64,000 bases of DNA from Eledone cirrhosa. Its lineage: Eukaryota. Below, piece by piece: positions 10,431-56,039 of this stretch. Below the pieces are notes generated by a model. It was given only the letters and a program-made list of their open reading frames with translations, did no database searches and was not told where the DNA came from. Each line of letters opens with the position of its first letter. Positions within the stretch are counted from its first letter, which is position 1. The position numbers and the translations under genes were made by a program. The DNA is taken from assembly GCA_964016885.1 (NCBI GenBank), contig OZ024740.1, positions 224,254,001 to 224,318,000 on the forward strand, read 5' to 3'.

Positions 10431-10464
10431 GTGGTCTTTCCCATCTTTTCCACTCCATTTCAAC

Positions 10465-13400
10465 ATGACCTCACTCAGAATAGGCAGCATAAATGCGCTT
10501 GGCTTGGGGTCGTCATGGAAGCAGGGCCCCCTGCTCAACGACCTCAGGTCACTAAACATAGATGTAGTGGCCATCAGCGAGACCAGAATCTCCGAAGCAC
10601 GTGCCTTCCCACCGATCTTCGGCGGCTACTATGTGTACGCATCTCCCAGCCGTCCGGGATCGGGAGGTGGAGTTGCTGTGCTTTTTCGGAGAGGTTTCGA
10701 TCTTGCCATACGGGCCATCTTCCTGGACCTAGAAGTAAGTTGGTGGTGCTGGACGTGACCAGCGGAGACGGGCAAGCTTTCAGGCTAGTGGCCGTCTATG
10801 CCCCGACAAGAGCAGGGCGGCCTGATTTCTTCCGGCGTCTGGAGACCTTTCTTGGAACGTCCCGCTCTTTAGTGTTAGTGGGCGACTGGAACGGGATCTT
10901 AGATCCACGCTGGGACTGTGTGGGATTAGCGGATAGGGGTGGAGGGTGCAAGAGCCTCACCAACCTGCTCAGGGGTTTTGAACTGTCTGACAGGTACCGA
11001 TTGGATTTCCCGAATGTGCCAATGTGGACTTGGACAAATCGCATAGGGTCATCCAGATCATATCTAGATAGAGTATTTTGTAGGGAAATATATAGGTCTA
11101 GCATAGGCTGTCCACAATTCAAGATAGTCAGCTACACGGACCACAAATTCGTGATCTGTGTGCTTGACTTAGATAGGCTTTATAGACGAGGACCCGGCTA
11201 CTGGAAGCTAAACGCGTCCTTACCAGCGCGCAAGGCCTACAGAGACCGGATTAGCGAACTAGTTAAGCGGGCGTTGATGGGGGCCATCGTCAACAACAAG
11301 TGGTGGTTTGCTCTGAAAATAGCGATTAGAATAGAATCGATTAGGTTTAGTAAGGCTTTAGCAAAAGAGAAAAATAGAGCAGAGGGAGAACTAGTTAGAA
11401 AATTAGACGAGGCGCTTAGCAAAGGCATTGCGACCGACATGCTCTCGGCGAAATTGGCCCTTGACCAATTCTTCAATGCAAAGCACGAAGGCTGCGTTGT
11501 CAGAGCTAGGGTGCGTGCTCTTAGACACGAGAGGACGAAAGCCATTCAATTGGCCCGAGTGGCGGAGGCGCGTCGTGGCAAGAAAGCCACGATCTGGTCT
11601 TTGGGGGACCACGACGGGCGTATGCTACTCTATCTCGGGCAAATGTGTGAAGCTTTTCAGCGACACTTCGCTCAGCTGTTCGGGGGCAGCGGTGGGCCGG
11701 GTCGAGGGATTGACTTTAGTGTCTACCTCGACGGACTGCCGCGGCGCTCGGCCACTGAGGTGGAGTGTTGCGAAAAGTCGATAACAGCCGCTGAAGTAAG
11801 GGAGGCAATGACTGGCTGCACAAGGGGTAAATCGCCTGGTTTGGATGGTCTGCCGTATGAACTTTACGTACAGATGCCAGACTTGTTCGGAGGCCTCTTG
11901 GCGGACGTCTACTGCAACTGGCAACAGAACGGGAGAATTCCCAGTTCTGTGAGCCGAGGAGCGGTGGCACTGCTGAGAAAGGATCCAAACAAGGGGATAA
12001 CATAGGTAATTTCCGGCCCATAACTCTGCTAAACACAGAGTTCAAGATTTTGGCCAAGGTGCTAGCAAAGAGGTTGGCGCTTGTCGTTGGTGGTCTGGTG
12101 GGAGAGGCGCAGACATGCGCCATTCCCAACAGATCCATCCACGACAACCTCCACCTCATGCGATACATCGTAGAGAGGGTAGCTAGGGAACCTGGCACGG
12201 GTGGGTCCTTGATCAATTTAGATCAGTCGAAAGCTTTCGATAGGGTCGACCATCGGTACCTAGTGACAGTCCTGAGGGCGGCTGGCTTTGGGCCCGTCTT
12301 CAGAGGCTGGATCGCTGCCATGCACAGCGACATCTCCTCTGTGGTGAGAGTGAACGGTCACCTGTCGGAACCGTTCAACATCATGCGCTCGGTCCGCCAA
12401 GGATGTCCCCTCTCGTCCCTTTTGTACGTATTGACTCTCGAGCCATTACTGCACAAAAAGGAGACGTTGAGGGGTGTCCCGCACGAACTAGGGTGCGGAA
12501 GATCCGTGTCAGCATATAAGGACGATGTCACCGTAGTGGTGTCGAACGCCAAACACATCGAGGCGATCGGCACTACACTAAGAGAATACAAAGCGGTGAC
12601 AGGAGCAATGATCAACCAGGAAAAGTCAGTGGGCCTGCAGCTCGGCACCTGGAGAGGCAGGTCCATGCCGTCGAACAGCGTCGTCGGACGCTGGACGGAC
12701 CGGTTAAATTGCTAGGGGTCTGGTTCGGTCCGGACCTCCAGACGGACAAAAGCTGGGACGAGGTGACGAGCAGGGTGGCTTCTCTCACCCAGAAATGGGC
12801 GCAGAGGATGCTATCCCTGAAAGGTCGAGTGGAGGTAGCTAACGCGTACATCGCGTCTGTCATCTGCTACCGCCTGACCGTCGTACCTTGTCCTAAGCCC
12901 CGCCTGACTGCGCTGGAGCGTTTGCTCTTTCGCTTTTTGTGGAAGGGACGCGCTCCGATGGTCAGGAGGTCCATCTGCTGTCAACACCCGCTACGTGGAG
13001 GGCTGGGAATACCGTGGCTGATGATACGCAGACACGCGCTCAGGCTACGACATCTCCACCTCTTCCTCTACGGTGATCAGTTATGGTCGCCGTTTGCTAG
13101 ACACGTATTTCCCCAGCTCGTTTCCTTGACGGAGATGCAGTCCTGGGTCAAGCGAAGACGGAGAGGGAGCGCCTGGAGACTGGAATGTCTTCAGGCGCTC
13201 ACAGCCCTCGACCAATCGGGCAATGTGATCGGTGGAAATTCCACCTCGGCGTTGTATAGAGGATTAGTGGAGGGGAAGAGCGATGACGTACTTGGAGAAA
13301 CTCTAGGCGTCGACGAAAATCAACTAGCCAATCTCTTCGGAAGAACTTTCAGGCCAGTGCCTATGGACAACTTCCAAAAATCTCTGTCCTGGCAGTGCTA

Positions 13401-13872
13401 CCGAGGAGCCTTGCCAGTTCGGGATAAACTCTATAGGCATGGCGGTGCCGTCAGTCGGGCATGTCCGAGATGCGCACAGGGCGACGAAACCGTCCTGCAC
13501 GCACTCGTCCAGTGTCCGAAAATTGCTGACTTGTGGGTTTATGTCGAACACCTGCTGTCGCGTGTAGGACGGATCCGGCTATCATCTGAGTCCATCGTGA
13601 GGATTGCCCCACCCTCCTCCTTTACCCGGGAAGGGCAGGCAGTTTTTATCTGTCTGGTGGCCATGGCGAAAGAGATAGTATGGTGGACACGTTTGAAAGG
13701 GCTGAAGACGAGCACTTACCTCTTCGGTGATGCTCTGATTAACTTTTTCAAATTTCATTTGAAAATCAGAGTAGAGAGGGAAGTGCTCTCTTCCCAGCAT
13801 TTTGTTGAAAGATGGGTGAGAGAAGCAAGAATGGCTCGAGTGAATGGGCCTACTCTTAGTATATATCTGTAA
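10465..13872 (+). pseudogene. Tx1 ORF2 (APE endonuclease, reverse transcriptase, zf-RVT), frameshifted
   Basis: SIN, ISET, VYAP, GDWN, SYLDR and TDH APE motifs; LDQSKAFDRVDH, SVRQGCPLS and YKDD (mutated YADD); C-terminal CPRC-ETVLHALVQC; frameshifts near 10740, 12000 and 12710. Confidence 0.92.
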
Positions 13873-48639: not shown

Positions 48640-49559
48640 GGAATAAGCAAAGAGTACTTAGAAATACAATGTTTTATTAGTTAACAGTGTTTCATCCATA
48701 CACCATGGCAGGAATCATCAGAGCCTATATATCAGTAGTTGCATGCTCCATCGAGCTGCGTCACCAGAACAAGGTTAAAGGACTAGCAGGAGGGTCCCGG
48801 GGTCAGCACTATATGAAAAAAGGCAGAATACATGATGCACATAATGTCAGAAAATGTCTTAAAAATTTAAAAATTAAAAATTAAAAATTAAAAATTAAAA
48901 ATTACACCAAAACTGTATCACTTAGATGGTGCAATAGATAATAAAAAGAATGGGAGAGGGTAGCAAGGGAAGAGTGAGGGTATTACTCAGCATGATCAGA
49001 AACAATAAGAAAATAATAAAAAAATAATATTAAAAAGTGCAAAAATACAGGGATAATAAAAGAGATAAATATAAAGATACAAAACAATAACGGAAGAAAA
49101 TGCCCGGAGACCCCAAAGAAATATAAGACAAATCAACACATAGATGCATCAAAGCATCTTTTATTATCCCTGTATTTTTGCACTTTTTAATATTATTCTT
49201 TTATTATTTTATTATTGTTTCTGATCATGCTGAGTAATACCCTCACTCTTCCCTTGCTACCTTCTCCCAACCTCTTTATCATCTTTTGCACCATTTAAGT
49301 GATACATTTTTGGTATAATTTTTAATTTAAACATTTTTAAGACATTTTATGACATTACGTTCATCATGTATTCTGCTTTTTTCCATATAACGCTGGCCTC
49401 GGGATCCCCCTGCTGGTCCTTTAACCTTGTTCTGGTGACGCAGCTCGATGGAGCATGCAACTACTGATATATAGGCTCTGATGATTCCTGCCATGGTGTA
49501 TGGATGAAACACTATTAGCTAATAAAACAATGTATTTCTAAGTACTCTTTGGTTATTCC
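48640..49559. mobile_element. Inverted pair of Penelope-type pLTR fragments (~420 and ~400-bp arms)
   Basis: 48640-49063 is reverse-complementary to 49157-49559 with scattered differences; each arm has CTGATGA...GAAAC HHR core followed by AATAAA (49472-49526 on +, 48678-48727 on -). Confidence 0.8.
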
Positions 49560-49561
49560 TA

Positions 49562-49601
<40 letters not shown>

Positions 49602-50609
49602 TGAAAATAATAGGCTGCCCGTTGCAAATGGTGGGGCATGTGAAAAAGTAGGTCCTTCATCAGTGACCCTCCAACCGTCCCAGGCATTTCATCGCTTTAA
49701 GGGCCATATGCCTCAGGTTGGTGCGAACAACGGCTAAAAAAAGTCGTTGGGACACGTAAACAAAGGGGACGCCAGGGTAACAAACAAAAAAGTTTAAGCA
49801 ACGGAAAGTGAGAAGAAATAGACAAGTCTCAGATCTCTATGAATATAAACTCGGTGAAATCGTGAACAAGAGACAAAAGACCATCAAACCTGGTTGAAAT
49901 GTGAGCAAGGAAAGAATTTCGCCCAAGTTTGACGGGGGGGGGGGGAGAGAGAGAAAAGAGAGAAGAAGAAGAAGAAGAAGAAGAAGAAGAAGAAGAAGAA
50001 GATAAAGGGGTCTGGTCTACGAATTCGGTAAACGTAAATTTTGTGAAGTCGCAGACGAAAGAGAGAGAGAAAAAAATTTCCATACCAGCTTGGTCAAGAC
50101 CGCGCGAGAAAAGAATTACACACAGGTAAAACTTGAAGGAGGAGGAGGAAAGAGGAGGAGGAGAGGTAGTGACAGAGAATGAGTGAGTGAAAGTTGAGGA
50201 GGAGGCTAACAGAGAAAGAGACTGCTAGAAAGGGTAAAAACGAACAGACGAGTGGCAGCAGAATAAAAATTATGTGTAAATATGAAAATAATATATATAT
50301 ATATATATATATATAAAAAAACAAATAACGAAACGAAATTAAATTTCGTTTCGTTTGTAACTCACTTTTGTATGACTGACGCTTAAACAATTAAATTAAA
50401 AATGTACATCCACATATGTATACTGAAATACTAGTATGCATATGAATACACACACGTGTACATATGTAGATGTACCGAGTTTTTCACTGGACACTTTACT
50501 GTGAGTGTCCAGCTATTCTGTATGTAAACACACAGACAAACCGGTTTTTAGAGTCATACTGGTTTTCGAGGAAACACCTTTCCTCTATTCTCCAGAAAGC
50601 CAGACAAGG

Positions 50610-50654
50610 AATATTGGACTAGTTTCGATGTTGTTACATCTCATCAGCAATATT
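50610..50654 (-). ncRNA. Type I hammerhead ribozyme, unit 1 (repeats every 466 bp, 8 copies on -)
   Basis: Minus strand AATATTG-CTGATGA-GATGT-AACA-ACATC-GAAAC-TA-GTC-CAATATT. Confidence 0.92.
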
Positions 50655-50739
50655 TACCTATCTTCCGGCCTCTCTAGAGAATCGTAAAAGAACATATCGT
50701 TATATGCTTTTTCTATGAAAATTAGTAGTGGGCAGACTA

Positions 50740-50747
50740 ATTTGCAT
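50740..50747 (-). promoter_or_regulatory. Octamer ATGCAAAT upstream of the hammerhead in each complete monomer (candidate snRNA-type promoter element)
   Basis: Perfect octamer ~86 nt 5' of HHR stem I on the ribozyme strand; conserved in the diverged 46.5-47.2 kb relative; function inferred. Confidence 0.45.
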
Positions 50748-53700
50748 AGAGCGTGAGTACGTACCGGTTCAGCGGAGACGATAAAAACAAATAACGAAAC
50801 GAAATTAAATTTCGTTTCGTTTGTAACTCACTTTTGTATGACTGACGCTTAAACAATTAAATTAAAAATGTACATCCACATATGTATACTGAAATACTAG
50901 TATGCATATGAATACACACACGTGTACATATGTAGATGTACCGAGTTTTTCACTGGACACTTTACTGTGAGTGTCCAGCTATTCTGTATGTAAACACACA
51001 GACAAACCGGTTTTTAGAGTCATACTGGTTTTCGAGGAAACACCTTTCCTCTATTCTCCAGAAAGCCAGACAAGGAATATTGGACTAGTTTCGATGTTGT
51101 TACATCTCATCAGCAATATTTACCTATCTTCCGGCCTCTCTAGAGAATCGTAAAAGAACATATCGTTATATGCTTTTTCTATGAAAATTAGTAGTGGGCA
51201 GACTAATTTGCATAGAGCGTGAGTACGTACCGGTTCAGCGGAGACGATAAAAACAAATAACGAAACGAAATTAAATTTCGTTTCGTTTGTAACTCACTTT
51301 TGTATGACTGACGCTTAAACAATTAAATTAAAAATGTACATCCACATATGTATACTGAAATACTAGTATGCATATGAATACACACACGTGTACATATGTA
51401 GATGTACCGAGTTTTTCACTGGACACTTTACTGTGAGTGTCCAGCTATTCTGTATGTAAACACACAGACAAACCGGTTTTTAGAGTCATACTGGTTTTCG
51501 AGGAAACACCTTTCCTCTATTCTCCAGAAAGCCAGACAAGGAATATTGGACTAGTTTCGATGTTGTTACATCTCATCAGCAATATTTACCTATCTTCCGG
51601 CCTCTCTAGAGAATCGTAAAAGAACATATCGTTATATGCTTTTTCTATGAAAATTAGTAGTGGGCAGACTAATTTGCATAGAGCGTGAGTACGTACCGGT
51701 TCAGCGGAGACGATAAAAACAAATAACGAAACGAAATTAAATTTCGTTTCGTTTGTAACTCACTTTTGTATGACTGACGCTTAAACAATTAAATTAAAAA
51801 TGTACATCCACATATGTATACTGAAATACTAGTATGCATATGAATACACACACGTGTACATATGTAGATGTACCGAGTTTTTCACTGGACACTTTACTGT
51901 GAGTGTCCAGCTATTCTGTATGTAAACACACAGACAAACCGGTTTTTAGAGTCATACTGGTTTTCGAGGAAACACCTTTCCTCTATTCTCCAGAAAGCCA
52001 GACAAGGAATATTGGACTAGTTTCGATGTTGTTACATCTCATCAGCAATATTTACCTATCTTCCGGCCTCTCTAGAGAATCGTAAAAGAACATATCGTTA
52101 TATGCTTTTTCTATGAAAATTAGTAGTGGGCAGACTAATTTGCATAGAGCGTGAGTACGTACCGGTTCAGCGGAGACGATAAAAACAAATAACGAAACGA
52201 AATTAAATTTCGTTTCGTTTGTAACTCACTTTTGTATGACTGACGCTTAAGCAATTAAATTAAAAATGTACATCCACATATGTATACTGAAATACTAGTA
52301 TGCATATGAATACACACACGTGTACATATGTAGATGTACCGAGTTTTTCACTGGACACTTTACTGTGAGTGTCCAGCTATTCTGTATGTAAACACACAGA
52401 CAAACCGGTTTTTAGAGTCATACTGGTTTTCGAGGAAACACCTTTCCTCTATTCTCCAGAAAGCCAGACAAGGAATATTGGACTAGTTTCGATGTTGTTA
52501 CATCTCATCAGCAATATTTACCTATCTTCCGGCCTCTCTAGAGAATCGTAAAAGAACATATCGTTATATGCTTTTTCTATGAAAATTAGTAGTGGGCAGA
52601 CTAATTTGCATAGAGCGTGAGTACGTACCGGTTCAGCGGAGACGATAAAAACAAATAACGAAACGAAATTAAATTTCGTTTCGTTTGTAACTCACTTTTG
52701 TATGACTGACGCTTAAGCAATTAAATTAAAAATGTACATCCACATATGTATACTGAAATACTAGTATGCATATGAATACACACACGTGTACATATGTAGA
52801 TGTACCGAGTTTTTCACTGGACACTTTACTGTGAGTGTCCAGCTATTCTGTATGTAAACACACAGACAAACCGGTTTTTAGAGTCATACTGGTTTTCGAG
52901 GAAACACCTTTCCTCTATTCTCCAGAAAGCCAGACAAGGAATATTGGACTAGTTTCGATGTTGTTACATCTCATCAGCAATATTTACCTATCTTCCGGCC
53001 TCTCTAGAGAATCGTAAAAGAACATATCGTTATATGCTTTTTCTATGAAAATTAGTAGTGGGCAGACTAATTTGCATAGAGCGTGAGTACGTACCGGTTC
53101 AGCGGAGACGATAAAAACAAATAACGAAACGAAATTAAATTTCGTTTCGTTTGTAACTCACTTTTGTATGACTGACGCTTAAACAATTAAATTAAAAATG
53201 TACATCCACATATGTATACTGAAATACTAGTATGCATATGAATACACACACGTGTACATATGTAGATGTACCGAGTTTTTCACTGGACACTTTACTGTGA
53301 GTGTCCAGCTATTCTGTATGTAAACACACAGACAAACCGGTTTTTAGAGTCATACTGGTTTTCGAGGAAACACCTTTCCTCTATTCTCCAGAAAGCCAGA
53401 CAAGGAATATTGGACTAGTTTCGATGTTGTTACATCTCATCAGCAATATTTACCTATCTTCCGGCCTCTCTAGAGAATCGTAAAAGAACATATCGTTATA
53501 TGCTTTTTCTATGAAAATTAGTAGTGGGCAGACTAATTTGCATAGAGCGTGAGTACGTACCGGTTCAGCGGAGACGATAAAAACAAATAACGAAACGAAA
53601 TTAAATTTCGTTTCGTTTGTAACTCACTTTTGTATGACTGACGCTTAAACAATTAAATTAAAAATGTACATCCACATATGTATACTGAAATACTAGTATG

Positions 53701-54034
53701 CATATGAATACACACACGTGTACATATGTAGATGTACCGAGTTTTTCACTGGACACTTTACTGTGAGTGTCCAGCTATTCTGTATGTAAACACACAGACA
53801 AACCGGTTTTTAGAGTCATACTGGTTTTCGAGGAAACACCTTTCCTCTATTCTCCAGAAAGCCAGACAAGGAATATTGGACTAGTTTCGATGTTGTTACA
53901 TCTCATCAGCAATATTTACCTATCTTCCGGCCTCTCTAGAGAATCGTAAAAGAACATATCGTTATAATTTTCATAGAAAAAGCATATAACGATATGTTCT
54001 TTTACGATTCTCTAGAGAGGCCGGAAGATAGGTA

Positions 54035-54079
54035 AATATTGCTGATGAGATGTAACAACATCGAAACTAGTCCAATATT
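54035..54079 (+). ncRNA. Type I hammerhead ribozyme in inverted arm (also 54501-54545 and 54967-55011)
   Basis: 7-bp stem I, CUGAUGA, 5-bp stem II, GAAAC, GUC triplet; predicted cleavage after C54072. Confidence 0.92.
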
Positions 54080-55229
54080 CCTTGTCTGGCTTTCTGGAGA
54101 ATAGAGGAAAGGTGTTTCCTCGAAAACCAGTATGACTCTAAAAACCGGTTTGTCTGTGTGTTTACATACAGAATAGCTGGACACTCACAGTAAAGTGTCC
54201 AGTGAAAAACTCGGTACATCTACATATGTACACGTGTGTGTATTCATATGCATACTAGTATTTCAGTATACATATGTGGATGTACATTTTTAATTTAATT
54301 GTTTAAGCGTCAGTCATACAAAAGTGAGTTACAAACGAAACGAAATTTAATTTCGTTTCGTTATTTGTTTTTATCGTCTCCGCTGAACCGGTACGTACTC
54401 ACGCTCTATGCAAATTAGTCTGCCCACTACTAATTTTCATAGAAAAAGCATATAACGATATGTTCTTTTACGATTCTCTAGAGAGGCCGGAAGATAGGTA
54501 AATATTGCTGATGAGATGTAACAACATCGAAACTAGTCCAATATTCCTTGTCTGGCTTTCTGGAGAATAGAGGAAAGGTGTTTCCTCGAAAACCAGTATG
54601 ACTCTAAAAACCGGTTTGTCTGTGTGTTTACATACAGAATAGCTGGACACTCACAGTAAAGTGTCCAGTGAAAAACTCGGTACATCTACATATGTACACG
54701 TGTGTGTATTCATATGCATACTAGTATTTCAGTATACATATGTGGATGTACATTTTTAATTTAATTGTTTAAGCGTCAGTCATACAAAAGTGAGTTACAA
54801 ACGAAACGAAATTTAATTTCGTTTCGTTATTTGTTTTTATCGTCTCCGCTGAACCGGTACGTACTCACGCTCTATGCAAATTAGTCTGCCCACTACTAAT
54901 TTTCATAGAAAAAGCATATAACGATATGTTCTTTTACGATTCTCTAGAGAGGCCGGAAGATAGGTAAATATTGCTGATGAGATGTAACAACATCGAAACT
55001 AGTCCAATATTCCTTGTCTGGCTTTCTGGAGAATAGAGGAAAGGTGTTTCCTCGAAAACCAGTATGACTCTAAAAACCGGTTTGTCTGTGTGTTTACATA
55101 CAGAATAGCTGGACACTCACAGTAAAGTGTCCAGTGAAAAACTCGGTACATCTACATATGTACACGTGTGTGTATTCATATGCATACTAGTATTTCAGTA
55201 TACATATGTGGATGTACATTTTTAATTTA

Positions 55230-55317
<88 letters not shown>

Positions 55318-55396
55318 GAAGGAGTTGTGGTAAGGAAAGTGATGGACCATAACGCACCAGAGTACTCAATACTTAGGGTAGTAGAGTGGGTAATAA

Positions 55397-55501
55397 GAAA
55401 ATGTATGAACCCGACGGCAGAGCCAGGCCGTTTTGACGGAATTTAGTCCAGAAATATCCGTCGAAATGGCTTGAGCTCTGCCGTCGGGGTCATACATTTT
55501 C
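55397..55501. repeat. ~105-bp imperfect palindrome within a short insert between (TA)n tracts
   Basis: GAAAATGTATGAACCCGACGGCAGAGC...GACGGA pairs with TCCGTC...GCTCTGCCGTCGGGGTCATACATTTTC. Confidence 0.8.
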
Positions 55502-56039
55502 CTATATATATATATATATATATATATATGGAGAGAGGGTTGGGTGATTGTGTGCATGGTTGTGTGAAAGTATGCATATAGATAACATATAAGATTATAA
55601 GTCAGGCAGATAGTAGATGAAATGGATTTTGGATATAAGAATTTCATATAGGCATTTTATTGTCATCGTCATCATCGCCATTTTAGACATCAAAAACAAA
55701 TCCATGTGTTTTTTATGCTTCTTTTGCAATGCAGGCACAGAAGTTTCAATATTTCCTGCTCTTCACCTTGATAGGAGTTTTATGGTGACAGATTAAGCTT
55801 GGGTATCTATACACTGTCCAATGAAATATCTAGCAAAAGATGGAGAAAAATATGTTACTGGTGATTATTGAAATAAAACCAAGAAATAAATTTAAAATGA
55901 CATGGCATATTTCCATGTAACCCACTCACCCTATATATCATATATCTTTCCTTGTTGCAATTGTTTGTATATAATATTCACATACAAATTTCAATATGTA
56001 AAATCTACTTATGTTATAATGTGTTTATATTGATAAACA

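Follow-up and report, generated by a model that had tools for sequence, protein, structure and literature searches.

The window analysed here is a stretch of 64,000 nucleotides (nt) of Eledone cirrhosa DNA (assembly GCA_964016885.1, contig OZ024740.1, positions 224,254,001 to 224,318,000, forward strand). Positions 50317-55234 of the window were found to be a single insertion of a 466-nt type I hammerhead retrozyme, bounded by (TA)n tracts. The array was probably written into a cut (TA)n sequence by the reverse transcriptase and endonuclease of a Penelope-like element (PLE), which would have primed complementary DNA (cDNA) from both DNA ends, with the two arms ending at two fixed sites, named A and B. 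The copy is a typical member of its family, both of its ends lying at family-wide fixed sites. It is real and young, an ordinary representative of an established class of elements, and its mode of insertion is the one already known for Penelope.

The insertion is asymmetric (3650 + 1270 nt) and consists of 7.8 units, a flip with a 2-nt TA overlap and 2.7 inverted units. The left arm (50317..53966, RNA sense on the minus strand) holds 7.83 units, the last of which spans monomer positions 1 to 388, and its outer end is site A. The right, inverted arm (53965..55234, RNA sense on the plus strand) holds 2.73 units, running from monomer position 408 to 71 with zero mismatches to the monomer, and its outer end is site B. 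The two arms share the TA microhomology at 53965..53966, the inversion junction. An 18-nt piece next to it (53967..53984, plus strand), described in an earlier note on this DNA as a spacer of inverted monomer sequence with a TA overlap, is indeed of that nature; it is right-arm sequence, since that arm starts at 53965, and it is unpartnered in the nearest register. On either side of these 18 nt, the innermost arms (52718-53966 and 53985-55233, 1249 nt each) are 100% complementary. The near-perfect palindrome of about 2.5 kb (52719..55234) claimed by the earlier note thus stands as to its arms, but position 52719 is no boundary, as the left arm continues to 50317. The perfect match stops at 52718 because units 5 and 6 of the left arm carry an A71G variant, at 52251 and 52717 (plus strand), the second of which set that apparent edge. 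The left-arm units are otherwise identical. A71G lies exactly in site B, in two adjacent units, and occurs in no other of 85 loci; it probably arose later and was then propagated by duplication or conversion. The mirror structure of the array far exceeds random expectation.

As the earlier note had read them, the outer ends fall at different monomer positions (1 and 71), away from the predicted cleavage site (300/301), and both abut (TA)n. The left target tract (50291..50316) has two extra A at its end, before the array, and the right one is a (TA)41 tract (55234..55315). The stretch between sites A and B forms a tail (50317..50389, minus strand) with a 13-bp hairpin just before A; it is present at the left terminus and not at the right one.

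The array contains 11 hammerhead motifs on its outward-pointing strand, eight directed leftward in the left arm and three directed rightward in the right arm, which agrees with the earlier description. In the right arm, the motif at 54501..54545 (plus strand) has its predicted cut after 54538, and further cuts are predicted after 54072 and 55004, in 466-nt steps. The first of the left-arm copies (50610..50654, minus strand) has its cut after 50617, followed by one every 466 nt up to 53879. The motif is made up of stem I (AATATTG/CAATATT), the core CUGAUGA...GAAA, a 5-bp stem II (GAUGU/ACAUC), a palindromic stem III (ACUAGU) and GUC at the predicted cut. It was called with motif rules that we take to be the accepted ones. 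Stems I and II form in the computed fold. An Rfam scan of the window gave 0 matches at the gathering threshold; the hammerhead call is that of core sequence and fold. For the palindromic stem III, the predicted fold is a dimer in which one copy pairs with another, and dimeric hammerhead action is known for amphibian retrozymes (PMC7229834).

The linear 466-nt monomer is strongly structured (z = -8.6) and has a GC content of 0.36. No open reading frame (ORF) of 120 aa or more was found in 50317-55234. The element is therefore non-coding, with GC below 50% and tandem units of a few hundred bp, each with a type I hammerhead; it has no long terminal repeats (LTRs), as judged from ends that abut (TA)n, primer-binding site and polypurine tract not having been searched for. 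In these testable features the 466-nt unit fits a metazoan non-LTR retrozyme (PMC7229834). Across the family, the cut site reads GUU, not GUC, in about 145 of 486 hammerhead cores, and this subfamily may cleave less efficiently. The cleavage-site spacing was exact in at least 465 of the 486 cores. The cDNAs therefore left no jump scars at the cleavage site, and their template must have been circular or else multimeric and uncleaved.

In order to place the window copy in its family, the 3.0-Gb assembly, which holds many near-identical arrays, was searched and three sets of loci were compared. The end-unselected set comprised the window, 34 loci and 4 further distinct loci (from 5 stretches), picked by similarity with a query that began at monomer position 1. 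The A-selected set was the first 61 of 1,908 site-A matches, on contig C1, of which 60 are distinct (L133 duplicates L132), and the B-selected set was 20 of 339 matches, 4 of them picked for want of a nearby listed A match. The near-identical pairs L097/L098 and L132/L133, probably a haplotig and a local duplication, were each counted once.

Exact junctions of (TA)n with site A were found in at least 1,908 copies genome-wide, and one form of the site B junction occurs 339 times. In the end-unselected set the outer ends fall on either of two sites about 70 nt apart, A (monomer 464-5) and B (68-73). Among the first 35 loci, 26 were inverted with ends A+B, one was inverted with position 405+B (L033), one was cut by a contig end and seven were single-arm copies (three ending at A, three at B and one at neither); the 4 further loci were all A+B. 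Inverted copies with both ends visible were thus A+B in 30 of 31 cases, the remaining one being 405+B, and the RNA 3' ends pointed outward in 32/32 inverted copies. The family therefore shows the inverted, 5'-truncated copy with outward 3' ends that is typical of PLEs.

The selected sets gave the same picture. In the A-selected set inversion was the majority outcome (51/60): the far end was B in 43 copies, elsewhere in 4 (L121, L130, L142, L146), not reached in 4 and never A, and 9 copies were single-arm. The far end was accordingly B in 43 of the 47 copies in which it was visible; 9 of these 43 B ends are arms shorter than 30 nt, judged by eye. Under an independent 50:50 choice, 43/43 B ends have p ~1e-13. 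The B-selected set had 13 copies with A at the far end, 2 with an A-like end from a sister family there, 5 with a single arm and none with B. No A+A or B+B pairing was found among the inverted copies examined; L116, a candidate A+A pair, was rejected as two separate insertions. The earlier note had set arbitrary ends with inversion against fixed ends without it. The tabulation supported neither as a whole: the outer ends are fixed, at A and B, but inversion is common and its register random.

The inner ends behaved differently from the outer ones. At 60 inversion joints the register of the two inner ends was uniform (Kolmogorov-Smirnov p=0.51), and fold-back loops of 30 nt or less were not enriched (6 observed vs 7.7 expected). 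The insert-free joints (n=34) had microhomology of at least 3 nt in 41% of cases, vs 7% by chance, and inserts of at least 5 nt were present at 18/60 joints, many of them visibly copied from neighbouring sequence. This pattern resembles two independent 3' ends brought together by end joining, for which polymerase theta would be a candidate enzyme. No pile-up was seen near the cleavage site (6/120 inner ends vs 5.4 expected). In the first set, A-arm inner ends seemed overrepresented ahead of the cleavage site; this was put down to query bias, as the pooled inner ends lack such an excess.

The targets are those of an element inserting into microsatellite or AT-rich DNA. Most end-unselected loci are flanked by (TA)n, which makes up 1.5% of the window. 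Target duplication is unreadable in the window because its flanks are pure (TA)n. Clear duplications were found at L046 (~12 nt) and L144 (56 nt), and interrupted direct duplications of at least 10 nt at 22/111 loci, vs 5.2 in shuffled pairs, although compound microsatellites can mimic them. At the family level, the target duplications thus exceed 4 bp when present, as is expected of retrozymes.

The same arrangement recurs in a sister hammerhead retrozyme family (L199-L218), which has a 466-nt period, its own hammerhead and 489 search candidates. Its copies end at the two homologous sites, about 55 nt apart, with a similar tail hairpin, and the 20 stretches fetched hold 4 distinct inverted loci, every one of them A'+B'. 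A different repeat, seen at L090, L093, L097 and L098, has a hammerhead-like motif of its own, in which stem II is long. As for possible partners, the genome holds 10,597 GIY-YIG candidates, and long frames with reverse transcriptase and GIY-YIG were found at L085 (938 aa) and L087 (1096 aa), both measured from stop to stop. L087, L090 and L092 are autonomous-type PLE insertions that are themselves inverted: the copies at L087 and L092 lie within (TA)n, with an extension at one end only, and those at L090 and L092 are palindromes of 3.3-3.6 kb with duplicated ORF ends. The array itself has no ORF with reverse transcriptase plus GIY-YIG, PLE-like coding matches being found only in the flanks of the fetched loci. 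Some apparent matches between PLE and retrozyme sequences were rejected as microsatellite artefacts.

These observations suggest the following course of events. A PLE protein, probably a dimer, would bind the RNA at the tail hairpin and cut both strands of AT-rich DNA. Reverse transcription would begin at A from one DNA 3' end and at B from the other, as a rule with a shared RNA or RNA lineage as template. On a circular RNA, or on a multimer left uncleaved, each cDNA would pass several units and the ribozyme site, so that the arrays would be largely made at insertion. Both cDNAs would stop at random, become joined by microhomology-mediated end joining and then be filled in, and where one arm failed or was lost, a copy would be left with a single arm whose outer end is A or B. 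An anole PLE studied in vitro is a predicted dimer that cuts both target strands, extends them and uses two internal start sites (PMC11167929). The earlier note had already proposed that the two ends of a cut (TA)n target served as primers, and had seen a likeness to Penelope insertions. Both ideas gained support from outward polarity, random register, microhomology and target duplications at about 115 other loci. Its view that the cDNAs were joined at their 5' ends had to be given up, as the priming model puts the cDNA 3' ends, corresponding to the 5' side of the RNA, at the middle join.

Several points weigh against priming from both ends by a PLE. The PLE partner is proposed because the insertion signature matches, and an autonomous PLE sharing sequence with the retrozyme was not found in 17 PLE 3' regions, a small part of the 10,597 candidates. 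The anole PLE start site is alike on both strands in vitro (PMC11167929), and equal use would therefore not by itself yield strict A+B pairing. Locus L169 (G000:C1:149586082-149593081) joins a window-family B arm, through a 28-nt inverted piece, to an A-like arm of the sister family; two RNAs can thus take part, which counts against a strict one-RNA model. The adjacent units 5-6 sharing A71G point to some duplication or conversion after insertion. The refinement skipped 13 joints besides the 60 analysed, and a few insert lengths are perhaps inflated by nearby variants. Finally, the registers are known modulo the unit, so that fold-back with a long loop also fits them.

A more far-reaching form of the proposal is tentative and, in our judgement, has rather less than an even chance of being right. 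A PLE dimer would clamp one circular RNA at the tail hairpin, and two rolling-circle reverse transcriptions, one for each end of a double-strand break in the target, would start together at A and B. Obligate two-site twin priming would then be the normal mode of PLE integration, replacing second-strand synthesis and explaining both the one-sided tail and the inverted pseudo-LTR throughout elements of this type. If this holds, kilobase palindromic satellite arrays are written in a single step. The earlier note had argued that arbitrary start points favour a circular template. That argument is not supported: the starts occupy two fixed positions inside the monomer, some 70 nt from each other, and such starts are as compatible with an uncleaved multimer as with a circle. 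The periodicity of per-unit variants, compared for the two templates, gave mixed lags. That the C356 allele of the window is private, which would favour a monomer circle, was rejected, as the allele occurs 3,393 times genome-wide.

An alternative to priming from both ends is that a single cDNA made from RNA folds back and its 3' end primes a DNA copy of it, the second outer end, B (or A), being set by endonuclease resolution. For the palindromes of rotifer Penelope elements, self-priming has been put forward (PMC3846280), and for the tail, endonuclease resolution (PMC8557442). The joint in the window does resemble an 18-nt hairpin loop closed by TA, and the arms almost always share subfamily indels and variants, as a DNA copy would give. 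Even so, fold-back is unlikely. In the 18-nt register the 1270-nt arm would have to be the template of the 3650-nt arm, which is impossible, and fold-back of the long arm in any of the three nearest usable registers would carry A71G into the right arm, from which it is absent, unless A71G arose later. Short loops show no excess at the 60 joints, B-only copies occur (5/20 in the B-selected set, 3/35 in the first set), and either arm can be the longer one (A in 25/43).

Separate RNAs, one per DNA end, could also have been used, with an asymmetry of the complex forcing one A and one B start. Dual priming by two RNAs has been postulated for L1 (PMC2837659), L169 joins arms of two families, and the short far ends of L167 and L164 resemble other variants. 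Nonetheless, although several subfamilies coexist, the arms within one locus agree in subfamily indels and variants in nearly all cases, and they match even for variants found in 1 of 85 loci (L051, L158, L173, L175). The 28-nt window-family piece at the L169 joint, moreover, fits a template switch. We consider the use of two RNAs improbable.

An assembly or library chimera at the flip is very improbable. No bridging read record was among those listed at the inversion joint or the left junction, which is uninformative, as the contigs are short and the left-junction repeat was skipped. The two flanks differ, so the mirror stops short of the flank, and a right end on family site B with the polarity of 32/32 inverted copies is not expected of a chimera. 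It is hardly credible that breakage and repair of DNA later inverted an ordinary tandem satellite, with no reverse transcription involved. Microhomology and inserts are general signs of repair, but such an origin predicts both polarities and random outer ends, and the 1,908 or more dispersed sites of the family show a single polarity and two fixed ends.

Both flanks of the insertion are themselves high-copy repeats, and no empty allele was identified against that background. To the right, 55316-55502 is a repeat with 3,023 candidates and an internal inverted repeat, lying between two (TA)n tracts. To the left, (TA)n tracts enclose a unit of ~697 nt (49597-50293) that has a 16-nt terminal repeat. 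The same sequence occurs in another permutation as LTR-like pairs around long ORFs (L195, L196), which we take to be Ty3/gypsy-like by their protease motif, and also as head-to-tail tandems (L186, L189, L197, L198). The unit may be a permuted LTR unit that itself moved Penelope-style. Further out, 48640-49559 is a fold-back element whose inverted arms form two pairs, of 244 and 181 nt, that are 92% complementary and enclose a 93-nt centre, and 10431-13872 holds broken LINE-like (long interspersed nuclear element) ORFs with Exo_endo_phos and zf-RVT matches.

Compared with known systems, the family shares with metazoan non-LTR retrozymes (PMC7229834; bioRxiv 10.64898/2026.07.22.740005) the dispersed, non-coding tandem units of low GC with a type I hammerhead in each, and those elements too are proposed riders of PLEs. 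The unit of 466 nt lies slightly above the 150-450 bp given by Cervera (PMC7229834) and inside the 51-972 bp given by Li (bioRxiv 10.64898/2026.07.22.740005). Tandem cDNA from a primed circular RNA was proposed by Cervera and de la Pena 2020 (PMC7229834). Inverted arrays, fixed termini and a tail, all present in the window family, are not described in the accessible portions of PMC7229834, where 'inverted' and 'microsatellite' each occur 0 times, or of Li, Clavereau and Pollet 2026 (bioRxiv 10.64898/2026.07.22.740005). The latter suggest that tandems grow locally after insertion, whereas in the window both arms are multi-unit and have primed ends.

L1 twin or dual priming (PMC2837659) is similar in that both target strands prime cDNA and the inversion lies inside the target duplication. 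It differs in using the poly(A) end plus an internal site, with an internal deletion, whereas in the window family both sites are internal and fixed and the arms cover the same sequence many times. The array has no poly(A), its second site is fixed and its arms overlap in sequence, unlike the L1 type.

The likeness to endonuclease-bearing PLEs is closer: partial tandems, an inverted 5'-truncated copy, a tail that is often one-ended and (TA)n targets that hide duplications are all reported for them (PMC8557442, PMC3846280). Non-autonomous tandem riders of PLEs are known in Chlamydomonas (MRC1) from the same sources. The differences are that the retrozyme has no ORF and that its two initiation sites bound a longer tail, present at one end, of ~70 nt (~55 in the sister family) vs the reported 30-40. 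The one-sided tail becomes a counted rule in this retrozyme family, and the junction data disfavour the self-priming account of 2013 (PMC3846280). The anole Poseidon PLE (PMC11167929) likewise has two internal start sites that bound a tail near a stem-loop, and likewise cuts and extends both strands of AT-rich targets; ribozyme cleavage is not needed and uncleaved RNA is used. Its initiation sites lie in an AC-rich loop and those of the window family are U-rich. In the available parts of that report, the two sites are not linked to the two ends of an inverted insertion, and paired starts are not reported.

Retrozymes, the tail, the inverted arm, the two start sites and both-strand extension have thus already been published singly. 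The pairing rule in a retrozyme was not found in print: neither A+B pairing nor inverted retrozyme arrays appeared in literature titles and abstract openings, most subscription papers and supplements aside. As the retrozyme shows the whole PLE insertion signature and has no ORF, the necessary signals lie in a 466-nt RNA. Strict A+B pairing, combined with random joints, speaks for paired priming of the two target strands and against self-priming. By implication, thousands of kilobase palindromes and small satellite arrays would have been seeded directly by retrotransposition. The origin of tandem and inverted PLE insertions has been called undefined (PMC8557442) and the mobilisation of retrozymes unresolved (bioRxiv 10.64898/2026.07.22.740005); the countable evidence of this family bears on both the insertion mechanism of PLEs and the mobilisation of retrozymes.

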